61,416 nt of DNA, taken from a virus (taxonomy: Duplodnaviria; Caudoviricetes). Below the pieces are notes generated by a model that saw nothing but the letters and a program-made list of their open reading frames with translations, ran no database searches and had not been told where the DNA came from. A program made the translations under genes and the position numbers. The stretch spans positions 1 through 61,416 of IMG/VR virus record IMGVR_UViG_3300047509_000054. One strand, 5' to 3'. This document shows positions 21,102-49,097 of the stretch, in pieces (positions within the stretch are counted from its first letter, which is position 1; each line of letters opens with the position of its first letter).

Positions 21102-21350
21102 ATGCGCATCCCCGGCAAACTTTCCAGACGATCAATCCTTGGCGGGATAGCCGGGCTGCTGGCCGGGCCAGCCATAACTCGTGCAATCTCATCTCTGCCT
21201 GATATTGCGGCAACGGATCCAATCAAACGATTGGGAGCTTGGGCCACCTCTACCGTAGTTGCTGGGCAAATCACATCGGTTACGATAACGAACGGTGGCA
21301 GCGGCTATCGCGTGCCGCCAACCGTCACAATTTACGATCCAAACGCATGA
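21102..21350 (+). CDS. Small protein with Tat-like leader and one GSGY repeat
   Basis: 'LSRRSILGGIAGLLAGPA' then 'ITSVTITNGGSGYRVPPTVTI'; ATGA-coupled to portal. Confidence 0.6.
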   Translation: MRIPGKLSRRSILGGIAGLLAGPAITRAISSLPDIAATDPIKRLGAWATSTVVAGQITSVTITNGGSGYRVPPTVTIYDPNA

Positions 21351-23140
21351 GAATCCCCTCCCGCAACATCGCAGCATTCGCCAAGGAACTCGTCGACCGC
21401 TGCTCGATTTCACGTGAAACACGCATCGAACGCGGCCGCATGTACCGCAATTTGTTTCTGACCGGCGACGAGGGCGGCGACCCGGCGACCTACCCCCGGA
21501 CCTACGCCTACATCGACAACCTCTCGTCCTATCTCTACTCGCCGGTCGAACTGCGCTTCATCATCGAGCACTACGGGCAGGCGAACCCCGCCGACCGCGC
21601 AAAGGCCAGAGCCGCCGCGTCCGACCTCCACCGCAGATTCCGCGAGGCCGCGCTCGACACCGAAATCGAGGAGGCCGTCACATGGGCCCTCGTCAAGGGC
21701 AAGATGTTCGTCAAGCTGCTGTGGTCGCGCTGGGGCTTCGAGCCGATCCTCGTGCAGCCGGAGATGATGGGCGTCCTCGACGAATCAAAGGCCAGCCTCG
21801 ACCGGCAGGAGGCGTTCTGCCACACGACATTCATTTCCAAGGCCCAGTTCTACGATCTCATCGAACTCCACCCCGACCGCGCCGACCTCGAAAAGAAGGT
21901 CCAGCGATATCTCTCGCCGCGCAAGGGAGCCGAGGAGGCGCAGGGGAACGCCGTGCTGCGTCAGGTCATCCTCGGCGGGCTCTACCCCTACCAGACAGCC
22001 GGCAACGATAGCGTAGCGAAGCCGCGCGGGTTCGTAGACTGGCTCTCCGGCCCCGATCCCGTCATCAGCCCCGAAGTTCTCGGCGACCTCCTGCGGCTCG
22101 ACGAGCTATGGGTCTGGGACTCGGCGGAAGACGACTGGACGACGATCCAGATCATCGGCGAGGATTGCGTCATCGAAGGCAAGACGATGCACCGCAACAT
22201 CTTCGCCGACGCCATCGACACGAACCTCAAGCTCGACCACAAGGACAACCCGCTCAACGGGCACCATCCCTTCAACGAGATCTGCCCGAACCCGCTCAAC
22301 GGCTACTTCTGGGGCCGCTCGGAACTCTGCAACGTCGCGCTGCTGCAAAAGACGCTGAACATCAGGCTCAACGGCATCAACGCGCTGCTGCGCTTGCAGG
22401 AGAAGCCGTCGCGGCTGATGACCGGCGGGACGAGCCTCAATCAGAGCGCGATGAACAAGATCAGCAAGCCGGGCGGATACCTGACGGACTCGAACCCGAA
22501 CGCGAAGATCAGTTCTCTCGCGCCTGAGATCCCGGTCGGCCTCTACGAATCGCTGCACGAAAGCGAGCGCATGTTCGACCACATGGCCGGCACGCCGCCT
22601 GTCCTCCAGGGCCGGGGCGAGGGATCGGTCAGAGCGCAGGGCCACGCCGAGACGCTGACCCGAAACGCATCGCCCCGCTTCAAGGACCGGGCATTGTTGA
22701 TCGAGCGTCAGATCGAAGCCATCGGCGGCCTCGGGCTTGACATGCTCAAGGCACACGAACCGAAAGACCTCGTCGCTTGGGTCAAGCCGAACGACGCCGG
22801 CATCGAGACGGAGTTGAACGGCGTCGAGGACATCGAGCAGGCTCCCGCGCCGGGGATGCGGAGAATCGATTTCAAATACGCCGATCTTCGAGATTGCGCC
22901 GTCAGGGTCGACTCTCATTCCGCCTCCCCGGCCTTCGCGCATGAAAGCAAACAGCTTGCGTTTGATTTGTTGAAAGCCGGTGTCGCGCCGCCGCGCTACG
23001 TCGCCGAACATCTGCATCCTGCCGGCGAAGACGAATTGGTCACCGATTTGGAGCGTGCCGAAATTGACCGCGCGAAGATGATGCAGGAACATCCGGAACT
23101 CGCACTTAAATCAATCGAGGGCGGCAAAAAACGGAAATGA
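21347..23140 (+). CDS. Portal protein
   Basis: 597 aa; 'ALVKGKMFVKLLW', 'NGYFWGRSE', 'AG.PPVLQGRGE' features of P22/T7-type portals. Confidence 0.8.
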   Translation: MRIPSRNIAAFAKELVDRCSISRETRIERGRMYRNLFLTGDEGGDPATYPRTYAYIDNLSSYLYSPVELRFIIEHYGQANPADRAKARAAASDLHRRFREAALDTEIEEAVTWALVKGKMFVKLLWSRWGFEPILVQPEMMGVLDESKASLDRQEAFCHTTFISKAQFYDLIELHPDRADLEKKVQRYLSPRKGAEEAQGNAVLRQVILGGLYPYQTAGNDSVAKPRGFVDWLSGPDPVISPEVLGDLLRLDELWVWDSAEDDWTTIQIIGEDCVIEGKTMHRNIFADAIDTNLKLDHKDNPLNGHHPFNEICPNPLNGYFWGRSELCNVALLQKTLNIRLNGINALLRLQEKPSRLMTGGTSLNQSAMNKISKPGGYLTDSNPNAKISSLAPEIPVGLYESLHESERMFDHMAGTPPVLQGRGEGSVRAQGHAETLTRNASPRFKDRALLIERQIEAIGGLGLDMLKAHEPKDLVAWVKPNDAGIETELNGVEDIEQAPAPGMRRIDFKYADLRDCAVRVDSHSASPAFAHESKQLAFDLLKAGVAPPRYVAEHLHPAGEDELVTDLERAEIDRAKMMQEHPELALKSIEGGKKRK

Positions 23141-23180
23141 GCCGTTGACGCCGCGTGCGCGTCGTGTCAAAGCCGTCACG

Positions 23181-23615
23181 GCTACGAGAGGCCCGTTGTT
23201 GCCCGTCCCGGAAGTTCCCGGAACGGCATCGTCCGTTACGTCCGGTCAATGCCGGAGGGGTTGTGAGTGGCTGGTCCAGTTTCTGACCAGTAGTGCTAGG
23301 AATGCGAGGCCGGAGGGGTTTTGCTTTCTGCGGCCAGTTACGGCCCGTTCCAGATCGTCATGTTAAGGCTGGAGGGGCATCGAAGTGAAGCGTGCGTCGC
23401 GGAGCGGGAAGTTCAGGCTTTGCGCTGATCGGCTCCGCTCTGTAAGGCTGTCTTGTTCGGGCATATCCCGTTCGGGTCCGCCACGTTGTTGCTGCGCTAG
23501 TTAAGGCCGGCAGAGAGAATACGAAAGTCGGCGGTTGCCGGCGAGAGGCGGGGAGAGTCGTTGCTTGTCGCATCGAGGCTCGTATGTGATTGGAGCGTCA
23601 ACGACAGGCGTGGTA
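23181..23615 (+). ncRNA. Candidate large structured RNA downstream of portal
   Basis: No credible ORF; 5' and 3' ends complementary; at least 6 internal stems; strand tentative. Confidence 0.45.
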
Positions 23616-23625
23616 AGGCCGGCTT

Positions 23626-24639
23626 CTATCGTTGTAGAAGTCGGCCTCCTTCCTTTCTAACGCGATCTCGCCAATACGCCATCAGGTCCGCCATCGTCTG
23701 CGCGAACGGGATCTCGGGTTGCCACCCTGTGTGTGCGCGAAACTTTCTTGTGTCGGGGACCTGGAGGTCGGCGTCGATCGGGCGCAGGCGCTCGGGATCG
23801 ACCTCGATGGTGATCCTCACATCAGCCGTGGACATCCGAATCAGGTGGTGAGCGATGTCGCCCACGGTGCAGGTGTGCGTGCCGCCGATGTTATAGTAGG
23901 ATCCGGGAATCGGATTGACCGTCACGGCGATGTGGTAGGCTTTGGCGACATCGCGAACGTCGCAGAGGGTTCGGAGAGAGTCTAGGTTTCCGACCTTCAC
24001 GACAGGCGGAAGAAGTCCGGCTTCTATCATGCAAATTTGCTTGCTGAACGAACTTTCCATGAACACATCGCCCCGCCTTGGCCCGGTCGTCGTGAACATC
24101 CGCGTCGTCTGCGTGTTGATGCCGTAAGCCTCGGCGTAGAAGCGCCCGACGAGATCGGTGCCGGCCTTGCTGATCGCGTAGGGGCTCGCGGGATGGAACA
24201 GCGTCTCCTCGCCGATCGGCACCTTGTCCTTCGGCACGCGACCGAAGACCTCCGACGAGGAACAAACGTGGACGATCGCCTGTGGACAGAATTGCCGCAC
24301 GGCGTCGAGCAGCCGAGTCGTTCCCAAGATGTTCGTGTCGAGGGTGTCGAGCGGCGAGTCGAACGAGGTGCGCGGGAAACTCTGCGCGGCGAGGTGGAAG
24401 ACGTAATCCGGCGCCGCCTCCCTGACCACGCGCTGAATGCTGATTGTGTCCCTCAAATCGCCGCAGAGCAGATGCACCCGGTCCTTCGCGTTGATGCGCG
24501 GGATCAGCGTTTCGAGGTTGTCGAGCGGCGAGCGCCACCGCGTCATTCCGTACACGTCCCAATCGGTGTGCTCGACCAGGTACTCGGCGAGGTGGCTGCC
24601 GACGAATCCGGTGAGGCCCGTAATCAGCGCGCGGGTCAA
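23626..24639 (-). CDS. GDP-mannose 4,6-dehydratase / RMD-like extended SDR
   Basis: 'ALITGLTGFVGSHL', 'HLAAQS', 'SSSEVFG', 'SPYAISK', 'GNLDSLR'; TTG start overlaps the upstream stop. Confidence 0.85.
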   Translation of the reverse strand: MTRALITGLTGFVGSHLAEYLVEHTDWDVYGMTRWRSPLDNLETLIPRINAKDRVHLLCGDLRDTISIQRVVREAAPDYVFHLAAQSFPRTSFDSPLDTLDTNILGTTRLLDAVRQFCPQAIVHVCSSSEVFGRVPKDKVPIGEETLFHPASPYAISKAGTDLVGRFYAEAYGINTQTTRMFTTTGPRRGDVFMESSFSKQICMIEAGLLPPVVKVGNLDSLRTLCDVRDVAKAYHIAVTVNPIPGSYYNIGGTHTCTVGDIAHHLIRMSTADVRITIEVDPERLRPIDADLQVPDTRKFRAHTGWQPEIPFAQTMADLMAYWRDRVRKEGGRLLQR

Positions 24640-25757
24640 AGGACTAGCCGCATGACGGCGACGGCGCGTTCGATGAGGTCCGGAGCGGGCCAAGGCGGGT
24701 TGCCCAAGAACATGCCGGTGTCGTGAATGCGGTCAGCGTTGGGTGTGGACTGGTTCTGCCAGCGGGCCGAGTAGGGGTGGCGCAGGAAGCTACCGCCAGC
24801 GGGAAGGCGACAATCTATGCTCGCTGCCCGCAACGCCGTCACCAGCCGCAACCTCGTCGCGTTGTCGGTCACGCTGAACTGAAACCCAAACGGCGACATG
24901 AAACCGTTCTCTCTAACTGGCGTGATATCCAGATCCTTGGTGAGTCCGATGAAGTGCTGATAATTGTGACGACGCTCTGCGATGAAGCCGGGGAGTTTGC
25001 GAAGCTGCACGCGGGCGACTGCCGAGTTGACCTCGCTCGGACGGCAGTTGAACCCAAAAATCTCGAAGCGGTATTCGTCGTCGAACGTCTCCGCCTTCTG
25101 CACGTCGCGCGTCCAGCCGTGCGAGCGCAGCATCCTCAAGAGCCGATAGCACTCGGCGTCGTTTGTGCCAACGAGTCCCAGTTCTATCGCGCTGAGTTGA
25201 TGGCTGTAGAATCCGCTGAACGTGCTCATCAGTCCGAAGGTGCCGCAGAGCTTGCCGTCAACCGATGCGCCGAGGCTTTCACACGCATCCTCGATCAGGT
25301 ACGCCTTCGTGACGGCCGCCGCCTTTTCCCATCCAGCGTAATAGGCCGGATTGCCGAGAACAGGGCAGGTGACGATGAGGCGCGGGACCGGCGTCGAGGT
25401 GACGATCAGCGGCACCGCGTTCCAAGTCGCGTCGGTATCAGCCACGCGAAGGTCCAACCCACTCTGCACCAAAGGCGCAAACGTGGTCGCCCAAGCAATC
25501 GCCGGCACCACAGCGCGATCACCGACCCGCAGCGGATTGTCCTTGAGATGAAAGAGCGCGGCGGTGGCGATCTGATTGGCGGCCGACCCGGAGTTTGTCG
25601 CGACGGCGTACTTGCGCCCGATATACGCGGCGAACTCCGATTCCAGAGCCGCCGTCTCCTCGCCCATCGTGACCCATTCGGAGTCGAGGACGCGGTTGAT
25701 CGCCTCCCGCTCTAGCTTGTCCCAATGTGAATGCCCGGTAGGAAACTCATATGCCAT
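24636..25757 (-). CDS. ColD-like PLP-dependent 4-keto-6-deoxysugar 3-dehydratase (DegT/DnrJ family)
   Basis: 'NSGSAAN', 'EDACESLGA', 'FYSHQLSAIELG' with His at the Schiff-base Lys position, 'LRSHGWTRD'. Confidence 0.85.
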   Translation of the reverse strand: MAYEFPTGHSHWDKLEREAINRVLDSEWVTMGEETAALESEFAAYIGRKYAVATNSGSAANQIATAALFHLKDNPLRVGDRAVVPAIAWATTFAPLVQSGLDLRVADTDATWNAVPLIVTSTPVPRLIVTCPVLGNPAYYAGWEKAAAVTKAYLIEDACESLGASVDGKLCGTFGLMSTFSGFYSHQLSAIELGLVGTNDAECYRLLRMLRSHGWTRDVQKAETFDDEYRFEIFGFNCRPSEVNSAVARVQLRKLPGFIAERRHNYQHFIGLTKDLDITPVRENGFMSPFGFQFSVTDNATRLRLVTALRAASIDCRLPAGGSFLRHPYSARWQNQSTPNADRIHDTGMFLGNPPWPAPDLIERAVAVMRLVL

Positions 25758-25774
25758 TTCGCTAATCCTCTCTG

Positions 25775-25927
25775 AGTTGCCGGCTCGCACCCCTTAGCGT
25801 TAGCCGCGCCGACTGTCAGAAGATCGGCGGGAGATTCACGGTTTGCCCCTTGCATAATGCGGGGGAGGGCTGCTTGGTTCGCTGGGACGGCCGGCGCGTC
25901 CCCCAGGACGAATCTCCTATGGCAACT
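25775..25927 (-). other. Multi-stem intergenic element in the sugar operon
   Basis: AGTTGCC/GGCAACT closing stem, GGAGATTC/GAATCTCC and two further hairpins. Confidence 0.45.
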
Positions 25928-25928
25928 G

Positions 25929-26456
25929 CTACGCATAGAATTGCGTATATTCGACGAGTAAGGTTGAGCCCTCGTAGTCTAGGGCCTTGCGATATGCGGG
26001 GACAATCAACTCGTGGACGGCGAGGCGCTCGACGCGGATCGTCTTGAACATCATCTCAAACGCCCCGCTTGGATCGCCGAGGTGCTGACATCCAGCGTCC
26101 AGCGGGATCGGCGTGGCGACCGCTGTGCGAATGATGACGCGGGGCTTGTAGCCGCCATTTGAGAAGATCGGAATCTTGTCCAGTTGCTGCACCATCTGCG
26201 GCACGGCTTCGAGGAGAAACTGGATGCGTGGATAGACGCTGACCGGCAGTCCGCCAGCGATGGCAATGCCCGTCGCCATCCCGCATTGGAGATTCTCGGC
26301 GACGGGCATTTCGAGCAACTTCTCGGGGGGCAGGTGGCGGAACGTTTGGCTCATCGCCGTTCCGTCCGCCACAACGGCCTGCCCGATCACGATGGCTAGC
26401 GGATGCTCGCACACGAGACTCATCGCGTCGCAGATGGCTTTCGCGTAGGCGTTCAT
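25929..26456 (-). CDS. TPP-dependent enzyme, E1-beta/transketolase pyrimidine-binding domain (short)
   Basis: 'EMPVAENLQCGMATGIAIAG', 'PRVIIR', 'GCQH'. Confidence 0.85.
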   Translation of the reverse strand: MNAYAKAICDAMSLVCEHPLAIVIGQAVVADGTAMSQTFRHLPPEKLLEMPVAENLQCGMATGIAIAGGLPVSVYPRIQFLLEAVPQMVQQLDKIPIFSNGGYKPRVIIRTAVATPIPLDAGCQHLGDPSGAFEMMFKTIRVERLAVHELIVPAYRKALDYEGSTLLVEYTQFYA

Positions 26457-26629
26457 TCGTCGGTCGACATGTTGTTGGCAAATTGCCATCCATACTCGGA
26501 AATCGCCTCTTCGATCATGTCCCTAATGATCGCCATCTTGGTCTCGTTCGGCATGCCGTGCGTTGCCCATACTCGCGGATCGGCACACAACTCTTCGATC
26601 ACCTTGTCGGCGTATTGTCCTGCGGTCAT
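26453..26629 (-). CDS. Hypothetical protein (58 aa)
   Basis: Start and stop overlap both neighbours. Confidence 0.5.
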   Translation of the reverse strand: MTAGQYADKVIEELCADPRVWATHGMPNETKMAIIRDMIEEAISEYGWQFANNMSTDE

Positions 26630-27222
26630 TAGAACTGAATCCTCTTGCCACTTCCGGCGTGCGGCCAGGGACTTGAATAGACGAAGGTCGTAACGAAGTC
26701 GTCCTCGGGGTTAGCAATGCGCGGCCCCCACGTCTCCTCGGTATCCGAGCACACGCTTTTCCCGTTGTCCTCGCATACGAAGTGGATCGGAAGATCGTGG
26801 CCGGCGGCGTAGGACAGGCACTCGTGAAACATGCCGCCGCGCGCTGTCATATCGCCGCAGAACACCCAGACGCGGTTAGTCCCGCCCGATCTTTTGATCT
26901 CGAACGCGATGCCGAGCGCGATCGGAAGGATGCCGCCGACGATCGCCGAGGAGATCATGCGGTAAACGGGGAAACAGAGCGTCATGGATCGACCGGCCAT
27001 GATCTCGGCGCGCACTAGATCGGGCGGAATCCCGTGGAGCAGCGCGTGATAGTGACTACGCCAGTTCGAGCAAATCCAGTCGGCCCGGTCGATCGTCTCG
27101 AACACCTTGATGAGTTGGGCTTCGCAGCCGCCGTGCAGATGGATCGGCGCGCGTATCTCGCCGCGATTGAATCTCTCGGCGATATCGGCCTCGAACGCGA
27201 TGAGTTCCTCGTCGGTCATCAT
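26629..27222 (-). CDS. TPP-dependent enzyme, E1-alpha-like (short)
   Basis: 'HLHGGCEA', 'RSHYHALLHG', 'IVGGILPIALG', TPP motif 'GDM...EDN'. Confidence 0.85.
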   Translation of the reverse strand: MMTDEELIAFEADIAERFNRGEIRAPIHLHGGCEAQLIKVFETIDRADWICSNWRSHYHALLHGIPPDLVRAEIMAGRSMTLCFPVYRMISSAIVGGILPIALGIAFEIKRSGGTNRVWVFCGDMTARGGMFHECLSYAAGHDLPIHFVCEDNGKSVCSDTEETWGPRIANPEDDFVTTFVYSSPWPHAGSGKRIQF

Positions 27223-27440
27223 TTGCCGACCACCCTCACAGGCACGCCCATGATCATCAGCCCATCGACGGATCGAGGAATCGGTCGCGCGAGTTTTTTC
27301 TGGAGCAACTTCATCTCCTCGACCAGCGCGTCGTATTCGGCCTGAGTCACTGCGAGATAGGCCGGGGCGCGTCCTCCCGTCGCGTCCTGGTCGAGGACGA
27401 TCTTGCGTGCGATGGCGTGGGCGAGGGGCGTCGCGGTCAT
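27219..27440 (-). CDS. Hypothetical protein
   Basis: ATGA-coupled short ORF. Confidence 0.5.
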   Translation of the reverse strand: MTATPLAHAIARKIVLDQDATGGRAPAYLAVTQAEYDALVEEMKLLQKKLARPIPRSVDGLMIMGVPVRVVGK

Positions 27441-27466
27441 TCTTGGAACATCGGAGTTATCATCGT

Positions 27467-28507
27467 CTACTCCGCAGCCTGCTTCTTGCGGAACGTCACG
27501 CGGTCGAAAACCTGCGTCCAGAACTCCGCCGGGTCGTGATCTTGGCGAACCGCCGTATAGAGCGCGTGCCCGATCTCTTCGCAGCGCTTTATCTGGCCCA
27601 TGAGAAATTTGCACATTTCCAGGCAGTGATCCGGGTTGTCGTACTCCTCGAACTCGGAGCGCGGCTCGAACCACTCGCGAAGATGCGGGTTCGTCCATTC
27701 GAGCAGGCACGCCCGCGCGAGCGCCGTCTCGATCACCCGGCCCTTGACGTGCTTGCGCTGCCCCGACCCGGTGAACGGCACGTTGACGATGATCCGGCAG
27801 TGCTGGAGGAACGAGGCGTAGCTCGCGTACTCCTCGAAGTCTCGAAGCTTGAGGACGAATGGCAACTCCTCCTGCTGGAGCCGCTCGACGACGCCCTTGC
27901 GCATCCAGCCGCCGACGTTGCCGGCATAGCCGATGGGGAACGGGCGCTCGGAGAAGGCGAAGGTTGGCTCGGGGTAGAATATCGGGCTGATTGGGGTGAG
28001 CAGCGTGATGCCGTTCTCGATCTTCCAGGATGGAAGTGGCGCGATGGCCCCGGTCCACTCCGAACCGCCCGGCCAGTCGTGGTTGCCGTCGATGCTGACG
28101 GTGAGGTCGAACAGCCCTTCCTCCTCGAACTTCCGCAGGATCGGCCACCACGGAGGATCGCCGCCGTCGAAGAGCAGATGCACCAGCGGCGCCATCTCCC
28201 TCAACTTCAGCAGCGTCTCGTTCGTCGGCGCGAACGCCGATCCCCACGCGCTGATGTAGAGAATGATGTCCGGTCGCATGTCCTCGGCGTGGTGCAGCAG
28301 TTCCGGATCGCACGTCACGTACTGCGCCGTCTGGTTGAGCCGCACCGCCGCCTTTTGCGTCGGGTCGAGCTTCTGGTAGATGCCGTAAGACTGCGTCGAT
28401 TTCTGATCGTAGCAAAATGAATTGACCTCGTGCTGGCCGATGTAGCGCAGGCCCGCCGCGATGCTCTCGGTGTCGCCGGTCGATGTCGTCGCGATCAGTA
28501 CGCGCAT
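27467..28507 (-). CDS. GT-B glycosyltransferase (CgeB / GT1_2-like C-terminus)
   Basis: 'IGYAG...R', 'CRIIVN', 'KGRVIE....ACLL', 'FEP..EF..Y', 'IGHALY..V..DH'. Confidence 0.75.
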   Translation of the reverse strand: MRVLIATTSTGDTESIAAGLRYIGQHEVNSFCYDQKSTQSYGIYQKLDPTQKAAVRLNQTAQYVTCDPELLHHAEDMRPDIILYISAWGSAFAPTNETLLKLREMAPLVHLLFDGGDPPWWPILRKFEEEGLFDLTVSIDGNHDWPGGSEWTGAIAPLPSWKIENGITLLTPISPIFYPEPTFAFSERPFPIGYAGNVGGWMRKGVVERLQQEELPFVLKLRDFEEYASYASFLQHCRIIVNVPFTGSGQRKHVKGRVIETALARACLLEWTNPHLREWFEPRSEFEEYDNPDHCLEMCKFLMGQIKRCEEIGHALYTAVRQDHDPAEFWTQVFDRVTFRKKQAAE

Positions 28508-28518
28508 GCGCTAATCCT

Positions 28519-28701
28519 TCAAGTGTAGTTTCCAGGGTCGGCGCCTGCCGGCCAGGTAAGCGCGTGCTCCTTCGCGAGGGCGCGCAACTCGTTCATGGGT
28601 ATGCTCACCCGGATCTCGATCAACTCGTCATCGCCCTTCTCGGCGGCCTGGATGATGATGCTGTAGTAGGCGCTCAATACCCTGCTTTCGATGGAGGTCA
28701 T
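28519..28701 (-). CDS. Hypothetical protein
   Basis: ATGA-coupled short ORF. Confidence 0.5.
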   Translation of the reverse strand: MTSIESRVLSAYYSIIIQAAEKGDDELIEIRVSIPMNELRALAKEHALTWPAGADPGNYT

Positions 28702-30173
28702 GCCGTCTCCAGCAGCTTGCGGCGGATCGTCTTCGCCGTCATCGCCTTGATGTGCTCGACCGTCGCGGCGCCGAACTTCTCGCGGATCATCGAGAGGTAG
28801 CGCGGGTTTCGGTAGTAGGTCTGGAACGCGGCGTCCCGGAATCGCAGCACCTCCTCCGCGCGGACGTGCAGCGTGTCGAGCGGGTGCGTCTCGTAGGCGT
28901 GTTGAGAAAATCCTAAATAGCTATCGGGCAGCCGCGCGCCGGCCTTCACCGCTTCCGCGTAAAGAGCCGATCCTGGATACGCCTGCGCAGAATAGAAGTT
29001 CGCGAAACTCGTATTGAGGCCCATTGCCAGATCGAGCGTCTCCTGCATGCTGACGAGGTCATCGTCTGGCAGGCCGAAAATGTAGTTCGCAATGACGTTG
29101 ATACCGGCACTTTCGATAGATCGAACCACCGCCACAATATCGTCGCTCTTGAGCGCCTTATCCGCTCCGTCTCTGACATGCTTGCTCCCCGATTCGATGC
29201 CGAGCGCGAGCCAGCGGATGCCGGCGCGGCGGAACATGCCGAGCGTGTCGGGCTTCACTGTATCGATTCTCGCGTAGGCCCACGCATTGCCACCGCGCTC
29301 GCCCCATCCGGATTCGATCAGACTTTGGCAGATCGCGGTGTAATGGCTCGGCTTGAGCACAAACATCTCGTCGACGATCTTGATCGTCTGGACGCCGTAC
29401 TTCCGTTCCAGCATGAGAATTTCGGCGACGACGTTCTCAGGATTTCTGGTACGATACTTGTTGTCTCCGAAGGGCGCAGAGATACAGCAAAATTTGCATC
29501 GCCAGCTACAATTTAGGCTCGTGTAGATCGAAGCGTAGGGCTTCCGCTTCGACAGATCGCCGAAGCACTGCCATGGGTGCGCGGCGTAGGCGTGCATCGG
29601 CAGCAAGTCCCACACGTCGCCGTGCAGATCCTTCATGTTGGGGAAGGCGGCTCGCGGCTCTTGGAGGATGCGACCAGAGACGAGAGAATCGCGCCACACC
29701 AATCCAGGAACCGGACCTCTGCCACGCAACAACCCTACGATGGTCTCGAATCCCTCGCCGTTGCAAGCGTAGTCGATCGGCTCGTCGCGCAGCGTCTTCT
29801 CGGGCAGCGCCGCGACGTAGCCGCCGACCATGATGACTGGGATATCGAAGCCATGAACCTCGTCGTCAAGCATGGCGGCGATCTCGTGCGCGCCGTGCAT
29901 GGTTTGGGCGCTCGAACTCGGTTGATGGCCGTGTGCCACAATGCAGATCAGGCGCGGCCTGTGGAACAACAGACCTATATTCATACAGACATCGGCGGCG
30001 CTCATACCCTCGGCTTCTGCGTCCATGATGGCGACGGAGAAACCCAGATCCCTCACATACCCAGCGATGAGGCGGACCCAAAGATTCGGTTCACACGCCA
30101 CCAACTCGTCGCCGAGTCCGCTATAGATCGCGTCAGACGCGCCGGGGTTTATGAGGAGGAGGTCGAGCGTCAT
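28698..30173 (-). CDS. Cobalamin-binding radical SAM enzyme (class B methyltransferase-like)
   Basis: N-terminal B12-binding pattern, CSWRCKFC, 'DEMF', 'LGIESGS', 'YIFGLP', 'YPGSALY'. Confidence 0.9.
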   Translation of the reverse strand: MTLDLLLINPGASDAIYSGLGDELVACEPNLWVRLIAGYVRDLGFSVAIMDAEAEGMSAADVCMNIGLLFHRPRLICIVAHGHQPSSSAQTMHGAHEIAAMLDDEVHGFDIPVIMVGGYVAALPEKTLRDEPIDYACNGEGFETIVGLLRGRGPVPGLVWRDSLVSGRILQEPRAAFPNMKDLHGDVWDLLPMHAYAAHPWQCFGDLSKRKPYASIYTSLNCSWRCKFCCISAPFGDNKYRTRNPENVVAEILMLERKYGVQTIKIVDEMFVLKPSHYTAICQSLIESGWGERGGNAWAYARIDTVKPDTLGMFRRAGIRWLALGIESGSKHVRDGADKALKSDDIVAVVRSIESAGINVIANYIFGLPDDDLVSMQETLDLAMGLNTSFANFYSAQAYPGSALYAEAVKAGARLPDSYLGFSQHAYETHPLDTLHVRAEEVLRFRDAAFQTYYRNPRYLSMIREKFGAATVEHIKAMTAKTIRRKLLETA

Positions 30174-30688
30174 ATCGGCCTCGGCTTATTTCTAGGACCG
30201 GATGTGTACCCTGTCCCGCCGCCAGTTTCGGTGACCGTCAGTTTTGCGGTCGGGTCGCTGACAAGGGCGGCGACCTCGCGCGGCCCGAACACGTTCCAGT
30301 TTCCGAACTCCTCGTGAAGCTCGGCGGCGAGAGCGTCGGCCTTGAAATCTTTTCTGTCTCCGCAGATCGAAGAGAGGACGTTCTTGGCGGTGTTTCTCAC
30401 TCCATTTATCGAGTGGGTTAGTTTCAGCAACTTGTCCTGCTCCGCGCCGCCGGCCCGCGCCTTCGCCTCATTTTCCCAGATGTATCGATTACACAACATC
30501 AGCACGAGCATCGCATGGATTGAGCGCGCATCGATCTCCGGTCGCAAAATGTCGAGATCGTGCAGGATCAACTCCATCTCAGCGCGGTACTCAGCGGCGT
30601 GCTCGGGGATGAAGACGGCCTTCAACTGCACGATCGAGAGCCGGTCGACGAGTTCGGCGAAGGTGGGGAGGTAGCTGCGCTCGGTCAT
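30170..30688 (-). CDS. DUF6165/DUF4254-like helical protein
   Basis: 'AELVDRLSI.QLK...N..IWE.E...R...N..R...K' pattern, recalled from glycosylation loci. Confidence 0.5.
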   Translation of the reverse strand: MTERSYLPTFAELVDRLSIVQLKAVFIPEHAAEYRAEMELILHDLDILRPEIDARSIHAMLVLMLCNRYIWENEAKARAGGAEQDKLLKLTHSINGVRNTAKNVLSSICGDRKDFKADALAAELHEEFGNWNVFGPREVAALVSDPTAKLTVTETGGGTGYTSGPRNKPRPI

Positions 30689-31014
30689 CGAAGGGCCTCG
30701 TCTATCATCGCCTGATATGCCTTGGTCGGCTGCCCATCGATCAGCGTCAGGGGGAGAGACCCTATCGTGGGAGTGTGGATGCCATACGTCATTGCGCCCG
30801 CTTCCTTCATTGGCCCGCTCGGTTCTCTCATCGCCATGATGGCGGCGCGGGCGTTCATATCGTCCACGATGTCGTGCGGCTCATCCCGTGCCGTCAGACC
30901 CTCTCGCACGACGGCATCGGTGTAGCCATCCTGAATGAAGAACGTGCCGTTGACGTGCGCCTCCAACTGGTAGCGCATCATCTCGAACGAGACCTTGTCC
31001 ACCATCTCGCTCAT
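30685..31014 (-). CDS. Hypothetical protein
   Basis: Coupled to both neighbours; C-terminus duplicated near 31500-31635. Confidence 0.7.
   Translation of the reverse strand: MSEMVDKVSFEMMRYQLEAHVNGTFFIQDGYTDAVVREGLTARDEPHDIVDDMNARAAIMAMREPSGPMKEAGAMTYGIHTPTIGSLPLTLIDGQPTKAYQAMIDEALR
30700..30828. repeat. ~130-bp direct repeat, copy A
   Basis: Encodes REPSGPMKEAGAMTYGIHTP.IGSLPLTLIDGQPTKAYQAMID, as does 31508-31636. Confidence 0.9.
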
Positions 31015-31496
31015 CGCTGCCTCGGCGGGTTGATCAGGCGGATCGGCATCGGCGTCCTCGGAGCCTGCGCGACGGCGACGGGATCAGGCGAGTGCTGGAC
31101 GCCGGGCGAGTACGATCCGGCGAGCGCGCGTCGTCCGAGCATCGCGGCGTTGGGGATCATCGGGTTCTTGCGCCGCCCGCCGCCGAAGAAACCATCGGCC
31201 ATCTTCTGGAGTTGTGGCGCAAGCGGCGGCGCGGAAGTCTCTCCCTCGCGCACGTTCGATTTCAGGTCCGTCATCCCGTGGTCCTGCATGACGATCTCGG
31301 CGGTCTGGTCGATCGCCTTGACGCTATTGCTCATGCCGACGACGGCGGGCGCGCGGTTCGAGGAGAAGTCCATCCCGCGCACCTTCTCGCGCTTGGAGCA
31401 CGCGGGGCACGGCGGGTCGGGCGCGTCCTCGGATGGCAGGACGCGGGTGTACTTGTGGCCGCAGGGGATGCAGCGGAGCGTGACCTTGACCTTCAT
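31011..31496 (-). CDS. Zinc-ribbon protein (FmdB-like N-terminus)
   Basis: CIPC...CPAC. Confidence 0.7.
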   Translation of the reverse strand: MKVKVTLRCIPCGHKYTRVLPSEDAPDPPCPACSKREKVRGMDFSSNRAPAVVGMSNSVKAIDQTAEIVMQDHGMTDLKSNVREGETSAPPLAPQLQKMADGFFGGGRRKNPMIPNAAMLGRRALAGSYSPGVQHSPDPVAVAQAPRTPMPIRLINPPRQR

Positions 31497-31507
31497 TCAA
31501 GCGCCTT

Positions 31508-31636
31508 ATCGATCATCGCCTGATATGCCTTCGTCGGTTGGCCGTCGATCAGCGTCAGGGGGAGAGAGCCTATCGCGGGAGTGTGAATGCCATACGTCAT
31601 TGCGCCCGCTTCCTTCATTGGCCCGCTCGGCTCGCG
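31508..31636. repeat. ~130-bp direct repeat, copy B (3' end of an ORF stopping at 31493, start unclear)
   Basis: Mostly synonymous differences from copy A. Confidence 0.9.
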
Positions 31637-31859
31637 AACACATTCGATAACGCGACGGGCAAGTCGGCGCGCCTGTTCGGTACTGCATCGCTTGCCGAAC
31701 ATGAGGGCGTATTCATCCACTCGCCGGGAATGGCATACATCACCAAATACCAGAGCATCACCCCCATGAAGGCGATGCGCAGTCCGATCGAGACATAGTC
31801 GAGCCCGGACGCCTCCTGAGCCACGATCCCTACTAGCGGCATTCCGCCCGAGGCTGGCA

Positions 31860-32213
31860 TCACGCTCTCCGTGCCAAGTCGTCGCGCCGCGCCTGCTCCG
31901 TATCGGCCCGCAGCACCTCATCGTCGGACGGCGCAACCCGCCAGCCTTTCGGCTCCCACGCGATCGTCGCGAAGTCCCATGCTGACACCCATTTTCCAGA
32001 CATAACCCACCTGCCTTTTTCGATCTTGCGCGTCTTCTGCCAGCGGGCGCGGACCTCGCGCGTGCCCTCGTTCAGCAAGATATGAGTCCCGTCGAGCGGC
32101 GCCGTATCCATTGCGGCGTACTCGACCGCAGGTTGCGGCGTCTCGACGGCGGGAGGAGGCGGCTCGGGCGTCGGCGGCGCCTCCTTGAATACCTGCTTCG
32201 GCTTCTCGGTCAT
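31860..32213 (-). CDS. Hypothetical protein (DUF551-like 'TAP.DGT' motif)
   Basis: GGAGG RBS; 'MDTAPLDGTHILL...EPKGW'. Confidence 0.6.
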   Translation of the reverse strand: MTEKPKQVFKEAPPTPEPPPPAVETPQPAVEYAAMDTAPLDGTHILLNEGTREVRARWQKTRKIEKGRWVMSGKWVSAWDFATIAWEPKGWRVAPSDDEVLRADTEQARRDDLARRA

Positions 32214-32689
32214 CTCTTCCTCCGTATCCCAAGCATACGCTGCTTGTCGCGACGGCGTTGTGCGGTGGCTCGAACACAGATCCGGCACCACCTCCCGAGG
32301 CCACCACAATCTGTTTTTCCGATCAGGGTGTTATCAGGGGAGTACGGGTGACCATTTTTGCAGTGCGTTTTTATTCTGTTGTGTTTTCCGCCATTTCCTC
32401 TCCTCACGTTCTCGGCGTGCGTCACCGGCTCAAGATGGTCTGGGTTGCAGCATGGAGGATTTCGGCAAAGATGATCTAACTCAAAGCCTTCGGGAATCGG
32501 ACCCTTGATCCGCTCGTACATCAATCGAGAAACCCTTACATGTTTTCGGTCGAATGACGCATACGCGTATCCATACGTAGTGGCCCCGGTCCAATTCCAG
32601 CAGCCGGTTGCTTGGTCAACCACGAGCTTGCTGGTGATGCGCTGGATCTTCCCTGGAATTGTCACGCCAAGCCTCGCTGTATCATCCAA
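32210..32689 (-). CDS. HNH endonuclease
   Basis: 'CWNWTG...LDHLCRNPPCCNPDHLEPVT..EN'; C-terminal KTHC..GH...C..C. Confidence 0.9.
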   Translation of the reverse strand: MDDTARLGVTIPGKIQRITSKLVVDQATGCWNWTGATTYGYAYASFDRKHVRVSRLMYERIKGPIPEGFELDHLCRNPPCCNPDHLEPVTHAENVRRGNGGKHNRIKTHCKNGHPYSPDNTLIGKTDCGGLGRWCRICVRATAQRRRDKQRMLGIRRKR

Positions 32690-34545: not shown

Positions 34546-35192
34546 CAGGGCACCCCGGTGTTGAACAGCTTGGCGAAGTGTGAGAGCGGGATCGTCACCG
34601 GACCCTGCGGCCTCATGCCCGGCTGGGCAGGATCGAACTTGAACGTGTGGTCAGCGAGAATCGCCCTCGCGCTCTTGACCTTCGCCGCATCCTTCTCGTA
34701 GGCGTCGAGCTTGCCGTTGCAGCCCGACAGCATACCCGTCAGCGCGTTCTCCATGACGTTCGGCTTGCCCTTCTTTGCCGAGAAGCGGCCGACAAGTTTC
34801 GCAAGCCGGTCGCGCACTTTCCGCACTGGTGCCGCCTGCTGCTCTATCGCCGCCGCGCGCTCGGCAAGAACCTGATCCATCAACTTCACGAGATCGAAGT
34901 GCAGAGCGTCGCCGACCTTCGCGAGCGCGGCATCAAGCGCGACCTGTAGCACTTGGATCGTCTCGGCCAGAGAATTATCTGGTGACTTCTCACTGATATC
35001 GCCTGTCGCGTCGTACTTCGCCCGGCGCTCGGGATCGACGAGAATGTCGTGCGCGTGCTTCAGCGCCGCGAAGACCTTGGCGTCGCCGCCGTTGATGTCG
35101 GGATGCGCGGCCTTTGCTTTACTCCGGTACGACTTCCTGATCTGCGCCGCCGTCGCATCGCGGGAAACGCCGAGAACATCATAGAGAGTCAT
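34545..35192 (-). CDS. J-domain (DnaJ-like) protein
   Basis: 'LYDVLGV...HPD..GG...L.DP.RR..YD.TG'. Confidence 0.9.
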   Translation of the reverse strand: MTLYDVLGVSRDATAAQIRKSYRSKAKAAHPDINGGDAKVFAALKHAHDILVDPERRAKYDATGDISEKSPDNSLAETIQVLQVALDAALAKVGDALHFDLVKLMDQVLAERAAAIEQQAAPVRKVRDRLAKLVGRFSAKKGKPNVMENALTGMLSGCNGKLDAYEKDAAKVKSARAILADHTFKFDPAQPGMRPQGPVTIPLSHFAKLFNTGVP

Positions 35193-35466
35193 CGCGCGCC
35201 ATCGTTATATAGTCGGACCACACAGGCGGAAACCGCGCGTCGTCGCGCTTGGGCGTGTCGTCGACTCGCAGGGCGAAGGGAACCCATCCGTCCTCAATGA
35301 TCGAGGTCATCTCGCCCGTCGGCGGTATCAGAACGCCATGCTCAGCGACGTGGCAACGGAAGACCTCGATGCGATCCTCGTTACCCATCTCGAAGGCGGC
35401 GACCAGCACGTCTTTCATCGGATAGGGAAAAGCGTTGGCGCTCATCGGCAGCCAGCCGTCATTCAT
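35179..35466 (-). CDS. Hypothetical protein
   Basis: GAGGG RBS; 'GWLPM' start typical of phage accessory ORFs. Confidence 0.6.
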   Translation of the reverse strand: MNDGWLPMSANAFPYPMKDVLVAAFEMGNEDRIEVFRCHVAEHGVLIPPTGEMTSIIEDGWVPFALRVDDTPKRDDARFPPVWSDYITMARDDSL

Positions 35467-49080: not shown

Positions 49081-49097
49081 AAACTTTGGTGATCTTT

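Follow-up and report, generated by a model that had tools for sequence, protein, structure and literature searches.

A widespread phage operon that most likely builds and transfers an unusual branched deoxy sugar

Introduction

The window analysed here, a stretch of 61,416 nucleotides, is a whole IMG/VR virus record (IMGVR_UViG_3300047509_000054) with direct terminal repeats and a completeness estimate of 100%, and it carries, flanked by its large terminase and portal genes, an operon of sugar-type enzymes. This raises the question of what such an operon makes and where its product is placed. Most likely, its enzymes remodel a GDP-sugar of the host into an unusual branched deoxy sugar, which is then joined to a target. 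In our best explanation, which we hold with slightly better than even confidence, it would be a five-step line, carried by the phage, that tailors a GDP-activated sugar taken from the host, most likely with a protein as the acceptor. Below, we follow the proposed steps in order and weigh the alternatives where the evidence bears on them.

Organisation of the operon

The original prediction named six co-oriented and largely coupled genes, and all six are present, in the same orientation on the minus strand within 23626–30688. Their coupling is also correct, the sole sizeable intergenic gap without an ORF being the 138 nt between the E1-beta-like and DegT-family genes. The placement between terminase and portal holds too, with the addition that the portal gene lies on the plus strand and is convergent with the operon; a hairpin between the two units is a probable terminator. 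The features are as follows.

21239–23140, plus strand: portal protein (context); 29% identical by tblastn to the portal annotated in MW202753, with 92% of the query covered; GC3 0.82
23616–23647, no strand: hairpin (14-bp stem) where the SDR gene stops, lying between the operon and the portal unit, which converge
23626–24639 (longest ORF from 24693), minus strand: extended SDR; Pfam GDP_Man_Dehyd 242.7 bits
24636–25790, minus strand: DegT-family PMP/PLP-dependent sugar 3-dehydrase, ColD type; Pfam DegT 179 bits and a ColD match
25929–26489, minus strand: E1-beta-like short ThDP subunit, 186 aa; short of the 27-bit cut-off for Transket_pyr, at 22.7 bits; PDB 1ik6 32.2 bits
26453–26629, minus strand: putative 58-aa ORF between E1-alpha and E1-beta; GC3 0.69
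26629–27222, minus strand: E1-alpha-like short ThDP subunit, 197 aa; Pfam E1_dh 49.3 bits (cut-off 22), profile positions 8–165 of 300
27219–27440, minus strand: 73-aa ORF, stop overlapping the E1-alpha start; GC by codon position 0.70/0.44/0.77, coding-like
27467–28507, minus strand: GT-B glycosyltransferase, YkvP/CgeB-like (PF13524), 346 aa; GC3 0.87; Pfam Glyco_trans_1_2 41.6 bits (cut-off 25)
28519–28701, minus strand: putative 60-aa ORF between the radical SAM and glycosyltransferase genes; GC3 0.84, coding-like
28698–30173, minus strand: radical SAM enzyme with a B12-binding domain (class B-type); above the Pfam cut-offs for both Radical_SAM (46.6 bits) and B12-binding (36.1 bits)
30170–30688, minus strand: 172-aa protein; helical, virus-only family near DUF6165; start overlapping the upstream ORF stop and stop overlapping the radical SAM start, by 4 nt each
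32662–34545, minus strand: large terminase (context); 35.9% identical by tblastn to the terminase large subunit annotated in MW202753, with 95% of the query covered

The SDR gene probably starts at the TTG at 24639, which overlaps the DegT stop as TTGA. A long ORF at 27219–28415 was rejected as the glycosyltransferase gene, its GC by codon position (0.83/0.57/0.48) marking it as out of frame.

Distribution of the cassette

The cassette is not the peculiarity of one phage that it might have seemed, since a family scan confirmed at least 581 relatives of the short E1-alpha among at least 599 IMG/VR stretches; the enzyme set is thus common among phages, and so far undescribed. We compared gene content at 87 loci, made up of the best 80, three further viral loci, two MAG contigs, two cyanophages and the window region, with one locus (L003) counted once; the best 80 were chosen by similarity to the window E1-alpha, so that co-occurrence figures are skewed towards close kin. 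Alongside E1-alpha/beta (87 loci), an SDR was found in 77, a DegT-family gene in 75, a B12 radical SAM gene in 70 and the 172-aa family in 38. The synteny survey, named as a check in the original prediction, supports the core set in that ThDP, SDR, DegT-family and B12 radical SAM genes occur together at 63 of the 87 loci; it goes against it at others, the radical SAM gene being absent from 17 and the DegT gene from 12 within the DNA covered, where contig ends cut some loci. A dehydratase of the window type (at least 59% identity) is present at only 7 of 86 loci, and a GHMP kinase, PfkB kinase or cytidylyltransferase-like gene at 56 of 87.

Formation of a GDP-linked 4-keto sugar

In the first step, judged by homology, the SDR would act on the GDP-sugar as a 4,6-dehydratase. 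Its SSSE and YAISK motifs align, and its scores against PDB entries (327.8 bits for the GDP-heptose 4,6-dehydratase 7us5, 140.1 bits for the GMD 1db3) place it with the GDP-heptose dehydratase clade of GDP-sugar 4,6-dehydratases and not with GMD, which revises the earlier label ‘GMD/RMD-like’. In the second step, the DegT-family enzyme would strip the 3-hydroxyl to give a GDP-3,6-dideoxy-4-keto sugar, as suggested by homology and by a diagnostic His. It matches ColD (2gms) at 250.2 bits, as against 120.3 for a CDP-type E1 dehydrase and at most 90.9 for aminotransferases, and the predicted His at the catalytic Lys position is borne out by alignment with ColD His188 (FYSHQLS in the window). Among relatives longer than 300 aa, with five shorter ones left out of the count, this residue is His in 72 of 73.

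Both of these enzymes are strong matches to characterised ones, and both early reactions are established on GDP-heptose in C. jejuni, where the GDP-3,6-dideoxy-heptose pathway of the HS:5 type, as described in PMC10680097, uses a GDP-heptose 4,6-dehydratase and a PLP/glutamate C3-dehydratase. The phage shares these first two enzymes and the GDP linkage. A C5-epimerase and a C4-reductase then complete the C. jejuni pathway; both are missing from the phage, which carries ThDP and B12 radical SAM enzymes instead. The colitose pathway (GMD, ColD, ColC) likewise shares the ColD-like enzyme with His for Lys, whereas the phage SDR is no canonical GMD and a ColC-type reductase/epimerase is missing. 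The complete genome contains a single SDR, and a second SDR, C4-reductase, kinase, nucleotidyltransferase, epimerase or isomerase was not found in it. The substrate is probably GDP-heptose, and the kinase and nucleotidyltransferase genes of sibling cassettes may activate heptose. The cyanophage clusters of P-TIM68 and S-SM2 include a gene annotated ‘phosphoheptose isomerase’. The SDRs of two other cassettes (L019 and L012) score 331 and 336 bits against PDB 6vo6, which we take to be Cj1427, a GDP-heptose C4-dehydrogenase.

A minimal ThDP enzyme as a candidate C4-branching enzyme

In the third step, a two-subunit minimal ThDP enzyme would decarboxylate a 2-keto acid, probably pyruvate, and the acyl anion would join the C4 ketone to give a tertiary alcohol with an acetyl branch, as family chemistry and gene content suggest. 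The E1-alpha-like chain consists of the diphosphate-binding (PP) domain only, its GDM...EDN aligning to GDG...ENN of human E1-alpha, and the E1-beta-like chain of the pyrimidine-binding (Pyr) domain only; the cofactor Glu is aligned in the 1ik6 match (PVAEN), and at least 95% of 84 family members keep Glu65. Similarity to characterised E1 proteins is remote (29.5 and 32.2 bits to PDB for the two subunits). For Transket_pyr, the beta relative at one locus (L005) reaches 37.3 bits. The alpha family has 3116 relatives at E ≤ 1e-5, mostly 192–223 aa long among the 120 matches listed, and fused alpha-beta forms occur in cyanophages P-TIM68 and S-SM2. The short subunits form a large, mainly viral family of their own.

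E1-type ThDP enzymes are known to attach C2 branches to deoxy-keto sugars, in vitro in the case of KbDH-alpha/beta (PMC12247030). The actinomycete alpha-KADH2 enzymes (AviB1/AviB2, Pau11/Pau12, the aldgamycin enzyme and KbDH-alpha/beta), whose branch is derived from pyruvate (PMC12247030; PMC4753412), resemble the phage pair in being two-subunit E1-type enzymes within a deoxysugar gene set; the phage subunits, likened to them by description and not by sequence, are half the size, with one domain each. Yersiniose A (the ThDP flavoenzyme YerE and the reductase YerF) and the ErwE/MygE systems, as described in PMC9306805, also branch a 3,6-dideoxy-4-keto sugar at C4, with an acyl group added by a ThDP enzyme. 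Those sugars, on the other hand, are CDP-linked, with 3-deoxygenation by E1/E3 and a ThDP enzyme of the decarboxylase (ALS-like) superfamily, whereas the phage set is GDP-linked, with a ColD-type dehydrase, an E1-type ThDP enzyme and no YerF-like reductase.

Source annotations name relatives ‘pyruvate/acetoin dehydrogenase alpha subunit’, as expected of a true 2-oxo-acid dehydrogenase E1 boosting host central metabolism, a reading to which we give almost no weight. The C-terminal halves of E1 subunits serve E2 and lipoyl chemistry. The alpha chain covers little more than half of its profile, the transketolase C-terminal domain is missing from the beta chain, neither an E2, an E3 nor a lipoyl gene was found in the phage locus or genome searched, and genuine plasmid E1 loci encode 311-aa and 324-aa subunits adjoining an E2; with both C-terminal halves and an E2 absent, a true dehydrogenase is effectively excluded. 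Quite improbable, if less so, is a mini-transketolase or decarboxylase that does not branch C4, for example one that builds or extends a sugar phosphate before activation or extends a terminal carbon. It would suit the cyanophage homologues, annotated transketolase-like and lying beside phosphoheptose isomerase, kinase and nucleotidyltransferase genes, and the split transketolase at the equivalent place in Azospirillum argentinense. Against it, the window genome keeps the ThDP pair and both keto-sugar-forming enzymes without those genes or a C4-reductase, and the near-universal partner, the His-type 3-dehydrase, yields a 4-keto sugar. This partnership ties the ThDP pair to keto-sugar formation, as had been proposed, and the lack of a C4-reductase fits C4 branching, because a ThDP carboligase would consume the 4-keto group. 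The predicted logic of 4,6-dehydratase, ColD-type 3-dehydrase, ThDP-dependent C4 branching and glycosyl transfer is supported, the first two steps matching strongly.

The radical SAM step

In the fourth step, the B12 radical SAM enzyme would alter the branched sugar, possibly by C-methylation, radical rearrangement or cyclisation. The enzyme carries a CSWRCKFC motif, and with HpnJ, AprD4, calditol synthase and GenK-type methylases it shares a B12-binding domain and CX3CX2C core. Its score lies well under every curated cut-off (127.2 bits against 577.6 for HpnJ, the best NCBIfam match, followed by ApyD and BchE), its best PDB match is the diol-dehydratase AprD4 (6fd2, 62.6 bits), and, differing from the HpnJ-type enzymes, its substrate would be an NDP-sugar. 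HpnJ family chemistry is carbocycle formation, not methylation. The methylation originally predicted has no specific support from these matches, and we regard the enzyme as a putative tailoring step whose nearest curated family is no methylase.

Orthologues (42–54% identity) lie in uncharacterised loci on Solidesulfovibrio magneticus RS-1 pDMC1 and on Azospirillum lipoferum 4B and A. argentinense Az39 plasmids. A GHMP-type kinase (49–52%) is common to all three, a Cj1427-like SDR (56–72%) to S. magneticus and A. argentinense, and a His-type DegT enzyme is found in S. magneticus only. ThDP enzymes accompany the orthologue on pDMC1 (full-length E1-alpha/beta) and in A. argentinense (the split transketolase), both non-orthologous to those of the phage; because orthologous radical SAM enzymes are paired with non-orthologous ThDP enzymes, the two steps appear to be functionally coupled. 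NUDIX, nucleotidyltransferase, GT2 and GT-C genes are found there too, and the loci serve cellular glycans and are not phage operons. A radical SAM–nucleotidyltransferase fusion was also found (P0227).

The acceptor

In the last step, the CgeB/YkvP-type GT-B enzyme would pass on the sugar; the acceptor is most likely a protein and may belong to the virion. The enzyme has no sequence match in the PDB and only 13 relatives in the word index, all PF13524; among its structural neighbours in the atlas are PF13524 proteins with a fused Maf_flag10_N or TPR module, which points towards a protein target. A GT41-TPR gene adjoins the ThDP pair at one locus (L005). The cassette adjoins head genes in three phage lineages; at one locus (L013) the major capsid gene is found about 4 kb upstream of it, and it shares the locus with Gp23 in 12 T4-like cases. 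Glycosyltransferases in or near structural modules are likewise found in mycobacteriophage virion glycosylation (PMC11256854) and in glycan hypermodification of phage DNA (bioRxiv 10.1101/2023.12.21.572611); as far as these sources describe them, both systems draw on ordinary host sugars, whereas here the phage carries a multi-step sugar-making line. The glycosyltransferase family and the head-gene position modestly strengthen the earlier proposal of virion glycosylation, which is still something we infer. Because a window-type glycosyltransferase or GT4 gene is present at only 30 of the 87 loci, transfer to a glycan in most cassettes remains putative.

The same pathway could instead decorate the host surface (LPS, capsule or S-layer), blocking superinfection or altering receptors, which is the usual interpretation of sugar and glycosyltransferase genes in marine myophages (PMC7029224); GT2 genes and a lipid-carrier-dependent GT-C gene accompany the bacterial counterparts in their glycan loci, and many sibling cassettes sit among several GT4 genes. 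We consider this unlikely for the window, where the only cassette glycosyltransferase is a soluble-type PF13524 enzyme, a flippase, polymerase or lipid-carrier glycosyltransferase was not found among the ORFs searched, and the operon lies, as in the other lineages, inside the late head-gene region. Still less probable is that the sugar is placed on phage DNA as a base hypermodification against restriction. Phage GT-B enzymes do load hexose, HexNAc, Kdo and heptose onto 5hmC, in gene sets that can adjoin structural genes (bioRxiv 10.1101/2023.12.21.572611), and the phage encodes DpdA, which indicates that it already modifies its DNA. Cytosine methyltransferase, TET-like dioxygenase and hydroxymethylase are, however, absent among about 40 ORFs searched by Pfam or PHROGs, including part of the small ORFs, and the glycosyltransferase resembles CgeB/Maf-type enzymes and not T4 beta-GT, a resemblance that serves as a lead only. 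A protein acceptor remains the favoured reading.

Accessory and small ORFs

Within the same range lies a seventh gene beyond the six originally named, encoding the 172-aa protein at 30170–30688. Its family, with 29 invariant columns in our alignment (A2), usually heads the cassette; its atlas neighbours are all viral, its profile has no PDB match, and its resemblance to DUF6165 is a lead only. The 244-nt gap between the glycosyltransferase and E1-alpha genes contains the 73-aa ORF, 71/72 identical to a relative (L003:9690-10004); both its product and the 172-aa protein are conserved accessories. The 60-aa ORF gave a tblastn match in none of the 86 related loci and the 58-aa ORF likewise matched none of the 86; the two ThDP genes directly adjoin each other in most relatives.

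Operon organization and genome setting

The window has direct terminal repeats and is estimated to be 100% complete as the whole 61,416-bp IMG/VR record; its GC content is about 62%, and no tRNA genes were found in it. Such a high GC content gives rise to abundant long spurious ORFs, and reading frames were therefore picked by GC at the codon positions. The genes considered here form a tightly packed minus-strand operon that runs from about 31496 down to 23626.

Genes of the operon and its flanks
32662-34545 (-), large terminase, upstream of the operon
31011-31496 (-), Zn-ribbon ORF, first in the packed operon
30685-31014 (-), 109-aa ORF
30170-30688 (-), 172-aa ORF
28698-30173 (-), B12 radical SAM gene
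28519-28701 (-), 60-aa ORF
27467-28507 (-), glycosyltransferase (GT), frame by codon-position GC
27219-27440 (-), 73-aa ORF
26629-27222 (-), E1-alpha-like gene
26453-26629 (-), 58-aa ORF
25929-26489 (-), E1-beta-like gene
24636-25790 (-), DegT-family gene
stop at 23626, probable TTG start at 24639 (-), SDR, overlapping the DegT-family gene
21239-23140 (+), portal, downstream of and convergent on the operon
18253-19317, major capsid gene

Overlaps of 4 nt occur at four consecutive junctions, from the Zn-ribbon ORF through to the 60-aa ORF past the radical SAM gene, and again at the 73-aa ORF/E1-alpha and DegT/SDR junctions, while the E1-alpha gene and the 58-aa ORF have 1 nt in common. E1-beta and DegT are separated by the sole real intergenic gap of the operon, 25791-25928 (138 nt), in which lies an inverted repeat rich in GC, GGGACG...CGTCCC, without a T-run. 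A hairpin with a 14-bp stem (23616-23647) marks the operon end, a strong element between the convergent portal and operon units. The block of sugar genes described in the original prediction is correct, with four corrections: the GT frame differs from that of the longest ORF, as shown by codon-position GC; the block further includes the 172-aa gene and the conserved 73-aa gene; the portal, which does bound the operon opposite the terminase, is on the plus strand and converges on it; and the SDR probably starts 18 codons further in than its longest ORF. A DNA search of the 7-kb operon region against 50,697 phage records gave no match, and Rfam on 23000-32800 gave two sub-threshold matches only.

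Several features of the surrounding genome are of note. The portal (21239-23140 (+), considered together with 23145-23647) is encoded on the other strand from the flanking genes, namely terminase, sugar operon and capsid genes, an inversion shared with the relative viral locus L003 (601-aa ORF, opposite strand). Directly upstream of the large terminase, where a small terminase is expected, there is a gene for a DnaJ-domain protein (34545-35192 (-); PF00226, E 6.7e-18), the end coordinate of which, 34545, is the terminase start coordinate. Other recognisable genes of the window (49086-50566 (+), 56844-57392 (-), 59331-60176 (-)) encode an ERF-family annealing protein, a YqaJ exonuclease, a GH108 endolysin that also has a peptidoglycan-binding domain, and a tail-fibre-like protein with an S74 intramolecular chaperone domain.

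Predicted enzymes of keto-sugar formation

The SDR (step 1) is an extended SDR by motif test, with the Gly-rich NAD, Ser/Thr-x-Glu and YxxxK motifs all there; aligned with the GDP-heptose 4,6-dehydratase 7us5, they read ITGLTGFVGS (Gly-rich NAD), SSSE (dehydratase) and YAISK (YxxxK). This enzyme is also the best match of the SDR in the PDB (327.8 bits), followed by RMD (2pk3, 189.2 bits), E. coli GMD (1db3, 140.1 bits) and dTDP-glucose dehydratase (at most 90.1 bits); against the NCBIfam gmd equivalog it scores 151.9 bits and does not reach the cut-off of 415. The SDR, originally labelled GMD/RMD-like, belongs with the GDP-heptose 4,6-dehydratase and not with GMD, and this match is well ahead of that to RMD, a reductase.

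The DegT-family enzyme (step 2; PF01041, 179 bits vs a cut-off of 19.8) matches ColD (2gms) at 250.2 bits, the Fe-S CDP-type 3-dehydrase (E1) at 120.3 bits and aminotransferases at no more than 90.9 bits in the PDB. The predicted substitution of His for the Schiff-base Lys is borne out: the His of FYSHQLS in the window aligns with the first His of FYSHHIA in ColD, the residue altered in the mutant chain 3b8x. Homology to characterised enzymes shows the predicted product of steps 1 and 2 to be a GDP-3,6-dideoxy-4-keto sugar. Cj1427 and a C3-dehydratase are reported to yield a 3-deoxy-4-keto-heptose in vitro (PMC10680097).

A half-size ThDP pair

The 'short' E1-alpha and E1-beta TPP proteins noted from the sequence are indeed half-size, at 197 and 186 aa, with the cofactor motifs kept. 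The E1-alpha-like chain spans positions 8-165 of the 300-position E1_dh profile and retains the Mg-diphosphate motif, GDM...EDN aligning with GDG...ENN of human E1-alpha; in the family alignment, G123 is invariant and D124, D152 and N153 are nearly so. The E1-beta-like chain is a bare pyrimidine-binding domain, without the transketolase C-terminal domain; its cofactor-activating Glu lies in PVAEN, aligned with PLNEG of the PDB structure 1ik6, and this Glu65 is kept in 95% or more of the 84 sequences of the family. The window lacks the C-terminal domain of E1-beta and the C-terminal half of E1-alpha, as well as E2, E3 and any lipoyl gene. The truncated alpha chain, the beta chain lacking its C-terminal domain and the missing E2 thus identify a minimal derivative and not the E1 of a 2-oxo-acid dehydrogenase, whose genuine loci are quite different: a plasmid tblastn search with E1-alpha returned ordinary dehydrogenase loci only, at no more than 38% identity, which serve as contrast loci. 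In the cyanophages P-TIM68 and S-SM2 both ThDP domains are fused in one protein, which argues that the two ThDP proteins of the window work together.

The original prediction likened the product to yersiniose. The yersiniose-type pathway (YerE/YerF) uses an ALS-like ThDP flavoenzyme and a branch ketoreductase, whereas the ThDP enzyme of the window is E1-type, and neither a YerF-like branch reductase nor a second SDR is present in the complete window genome; the cassette is thus placed outside that pathway. By gene content it resembles the sugar-branching alpha-KADH2 carboligases of the AviB1/B2 type, which likewise combine an E1-type two-subunit ThDP enzyme with deoxy-keto NDP-sugar enzymes.

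To our knowledge, every ordinary 3,6-dideoxy pathway requires a C4-reductase, and none was found in the complete window genome. From this absence, together with the precedents for branching by E1-type enzymes and by YerE and ErwE, we infer that in step 3 the minimal ThDP enzyme would add an acyl group, probably acetyl, to C4 of the GDP-3,6-dideoxy-4-keto sugar. E1-type ThDP enzymes are reported to branch sugars in antibiotic deoxysugar pathways, as demonstrated in vitro for KbDH-alpha/beta (PMC12247030; PMC4753412), and YerE and ErwE are described as carrying out the equivalent C4 branching on an analogous CDP-sugar (PMC9306805). We considered erwiniose as a methylated-heptose product and dropped it; erwiniose is a hexose with a C4 branch, which is reported to derive from 4-hydroxy-2-oxopentanoate (PMC9306805).

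In P-TIM68 (L008, 7970-10194) and S-SM2 (L009, 7969-10191), the gene immediately before the fused ThDP gene encodes a zinc-type alcohol dehydrogenase, and neither cluster contains a B12 radical SAM gene. Both may represent a variant pathway that merely reduces the acyl branch.

The B12 radical SAM enzyme

The B12 radical SAM enzyme is present as predicted, with an N-terminal B12-binding domain (PF02310, 36.1 bits vs 32.1), a radical SAM domain (PF04055, 46.6 vs 29.5) and the cluster motif CSWRCKFC, which fits the CX3CX2C core. Its nearest curated families are mixed, HpnJ being best, followed by ApyD, BchE, PhpK and AprD4. At 127.2 bits it falls far short of the HpnJ equivalog cut-off of 577.6 and is thus HpnJ-like without being a member; among solved structures, the diol-dehydratase AprD4 matches it best. 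In step 4 this enzyme would tailor the sugar by methylation, rearrangement or ring closure: methylation, as originally proposed, is possible, and its HpnJ and AprD4 affinities make rearrangement or ring closure possible as well.

At E<=1e-20 the family numbers more than 6206 proteins, and named homologues come from Azospirillum, Arenibaculum and a Rhodospirillales MAG. One homologue (P0227) is fused to a sugar-phosphate nucleotidyltransferase. Three others of 735-810 aa (P0174, P0177 and P0226) carry the intein domain PF14890, one of them also with an HNH-type domain.

Distribution of the cassette

A search with the short E1-alpha, in which 3197 candidates were scored at a threshold of E<=1e-5, gave 3116 relatives, mostly of 192-223 aa among the matches listed, and an E1-alpha profile scan of IMG/VR matched at least 599 stretches, of which at least 581 were confirmed. 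ORFs were clustered in 87 loci, consisting of the best 80 of the at least 581 confirmed, three earlier viral loci (L003 counted once), two MAG contigs, two cyanophage loci and the corresponding region of the window, each family being named from one representative. As these loci are the closest kin of the window protein, the proportions should be read as upper limits for the family as a whole: the ThDP pair is found in 87/87 loci, the SDR in 77, the DegT-family gene in 75, the B12 radical SAM gene in 70, the 172-aa family in 38, a GHMP kinase in 34, the window-type GT in 23, an RmlC-like epimerase in 22, a PfkB kinase in 19 and a cytidylyltransferase-like gene in 14. The synteny survey named beforehand as a check on the pathway finds the four core genes together in 63/87 loci (62 of the 82 from IMG/VR), and at least 10 loci hold a six-gene form (172-aa, alpha, beta, DegT, SDR and radical SAM). 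Among the 73 DegT members that exceed 300 aa, 72 have His in the catalytic position; five shorter ones were left out.

A scan of genome contigs with the single protein as query returned two DPANN MAG contigs only. Related enzyme sets do occur on bacterial plasmids. On pDMC1 of S. magneticus RS-1, a radical SAM enzyme (42% identical) adjoins two GT2 enzymes and a NUDIX protein, with a kinase at 52% identity to the phage GHMP kinases; the row continues with full-length E1-alpha and E1-beta, a GDP-fucose-synthase-like SDR, a His-type DegT enzyme (YVAHIIS), a second SDR (56% to the phage SDRs), a nucleotidyltransferase and a lipid-carrier-dependent GT-C. An Azospirillum argentinense plasmid carries radical SAM, SDR (72% to that of the viral locus L013) and kinase genes with a split transketolase, and an A. 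lipoferum plasmid carries radical SAM (54% to the window, 63% to L013), kinase, NUDIX and GDP-fucose-synthase-like genes. The swapping in of non-orthologous ThDP enzymes while the radical SAM enzyme is retained suggests that both steps belong to one pathway. The pDMC1 locus (L092, Solidesulfovibrio magneticus RS-1, record 22514-35407) is a 13-gene glycan locus of the same enzyme logic and appears uncharacterised.

Substrate and possible products

It is context alone that speaks for GDP-heptose over GDP-mannose as the SDR substrate. The window-type dehydratase (at least 59% identity) is present in only 7/86 other loci; the SDRs of the two other cassettes tested, L019 and L012, score 331 and 336 bits against 6vo6/6vo8, the former of which we take to be Cj1427, a GDP-heptose C4-dehydrogenase. 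In 56/87 loci there is a GHMP kinase, a PfkB kinase or a cytidylyltransferase-like gene, the families to which HddA and both halves of HldE belong. The annotated clusters of P-TIM68 and S-SM2 include a 'phosphoheptose isomerase'. The complete window genome has no kinase, cytidylyltransferase-like or phosphoheptose isomerase gene, and the activated sugar must thus come from the host. A 2020 structural paper on Cj1427 appears in the reference list of the in vitro study cited for that enzyme (PMC10680097).

We regard it as unlikely that the cassette makes a caryose-type carbocyclic higher sugar, a hypothesis that draws only on atom count, deoxy pattern and a weak HpnJ resemblance. The seven-carbon 3-deoxy-4-keto-heptose would gain a two-carbon acetyl unit at C4 through the ThDP enzyme, and a cyclopentane ring would then be closed by the HpnJ-like radical SAM enzyme through a bond between C7 and the carbonyl carbon just added. 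The outcome would depend on the SDR: the Cj1427-like enzyme that most sibling cassettes carry would lead to the caryose skeleton (4,8-cyclo-3,9-dideoxy-nonose), and the 4,6-dehydratase of the window to a 6-deoxy analogue. The cassette has one candidate enzyme per required step, and caryose biosynthesis is called unknown in a 2022 review (PMC9092360). If this were true, phages would be a major reservoir of a carbocyclic-sugar pathway, used for virion decoration.

Glycosyltransferase and glycan target

The predicted GT-B transferase is present (PF13524, YkvP/CgeB-like; 41.6 bits vs a gathering score of 25), and its Atlas neighbours are all PF13524. The longest ORF, 27219-28415, is in the wrong frame by codon-position GC and has no Pfam, NCBIfam, PHROG or PDB match. 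In step 5 the GT would transfer the finished sugar to its acceptor.

Four points favour a protein acceptor, perhaps on the virion, over other targets. PF13524 structural neighbours in the Atlas are fused to Maf (flagellin glycosylation) or TPR modules, which is a lead only, and in the viral locus L005 a GT41-TPR gene adjoins the ThDP pair. Furthermore, the cassette lies near head genes in three unrelated lineages: between terminase and portal in the window; in L013, about 4 kb downstream of the gene for the major capsid protein; and, in 12 T4-like loci, within one locus together with Gp23. Lastly, a second GT-like gene of the window (3564-4949) adjoins the tape-measure-like gene. Modification of the host surface is a possible alternative, as is glycosylation of DNA: phage DNA glycans including heptose are reported (bioRxiv 10.1101/2023.12.21.572611) and the window phage encodes DpdA, but no 5hmC-forming enzyme was found among about 40 ORFs searched. 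Two large proteins adjoining the major capsid gene, 14049-16334 (-) and 17159-18235 (-), both match PHROG families of repeat-containing virion structural, decoration or head-closure proteins, and are thus candidate surface proteins and candidate glycan acceptors.

The DpdA homologue (45001-45741 (-); PF23859, E 1e-39) points to the probable insertion of a 7-deazaguanine base by the phage into its own DNA; the neighbours searched included no recognisable genes of the QueC/D/E type. A 461-aa protein encoded at 3564-4949 (-), abutting a 1028-aa tape-measure-like gene (4949-8035), matches the PHROG glycosyltransferase family phrog_14945 over its N-terminal half (E 1.5e-20), has no Pfam match, and is a possible further glycosyltransferase within the structural module.

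Relation to known pathways

The enzyme logic behind deoxy and branched sugars is well known, as is the occurrence of odd sugar genes in phages. No description of a recurrent phage cassette combining an SDR, a ColD-type enzyme, a half-size ThDP enzyme and a B12 radical SAM enzyme was found in the literature searched. Work on pelagimyophages makes general mention of LPS genes and of radical SAM cassettes (PMC7029224), and a cyanophage paper describes adjacent AHBA_syn (a DegT relative) and radical SAM genes as puzzling 'antibiotic synthesis genes' (PMC12801897), a pair possibly from such a cassette. The pathway type, NDP-sugar tailoring with ThDP-dependent branching, is known, and what sets the cassette apart is a new minimal ThDP family, the radical SAM step and the unexpectedly wide viral spread. 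If our reading is true, hundreds of phages, from T4-like marine myophages to the 61-kb phage of the window, would make a new branched or carbocyclic heptose-derived sugar, and no smaller sugar carboligase than the minimal ThDP enzyme would be known, which would make it interesting for biocatalysis. A testable function would follow for the glycan loci of Azospirillum and Solidesulfovibrio, so far uncharacterised, and the phage glycosylation target would be testable in cultured P-TIM68, S-SM2, Azospirillum lipoferum 4B and S. magneticus RS-1.

Small genes of the operon

The 172-aa protein belongs to a virus-only helical family near DUF6165, with no solved relative in the PDB, profile search included; its resemblance to a corrinoid adenosyltransferase in the Atlas, with a TM score of 0.44, is too weak to rely on. 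The candidate 60-aa and 58-aa ORFs (28519-28701 and 26453-26629) have no match in the 86 related loci. The gap between the GT and E1-alpha genes folds no better than shuffled sequences (z 0.45) and holds the small 73-aa gene. The protein of this gene (27219-27440 (-)) is unusually strongly conserved, with 71/72 residues identical to L003:9690-10004, the flanking enzymes being only 74-94% identical.
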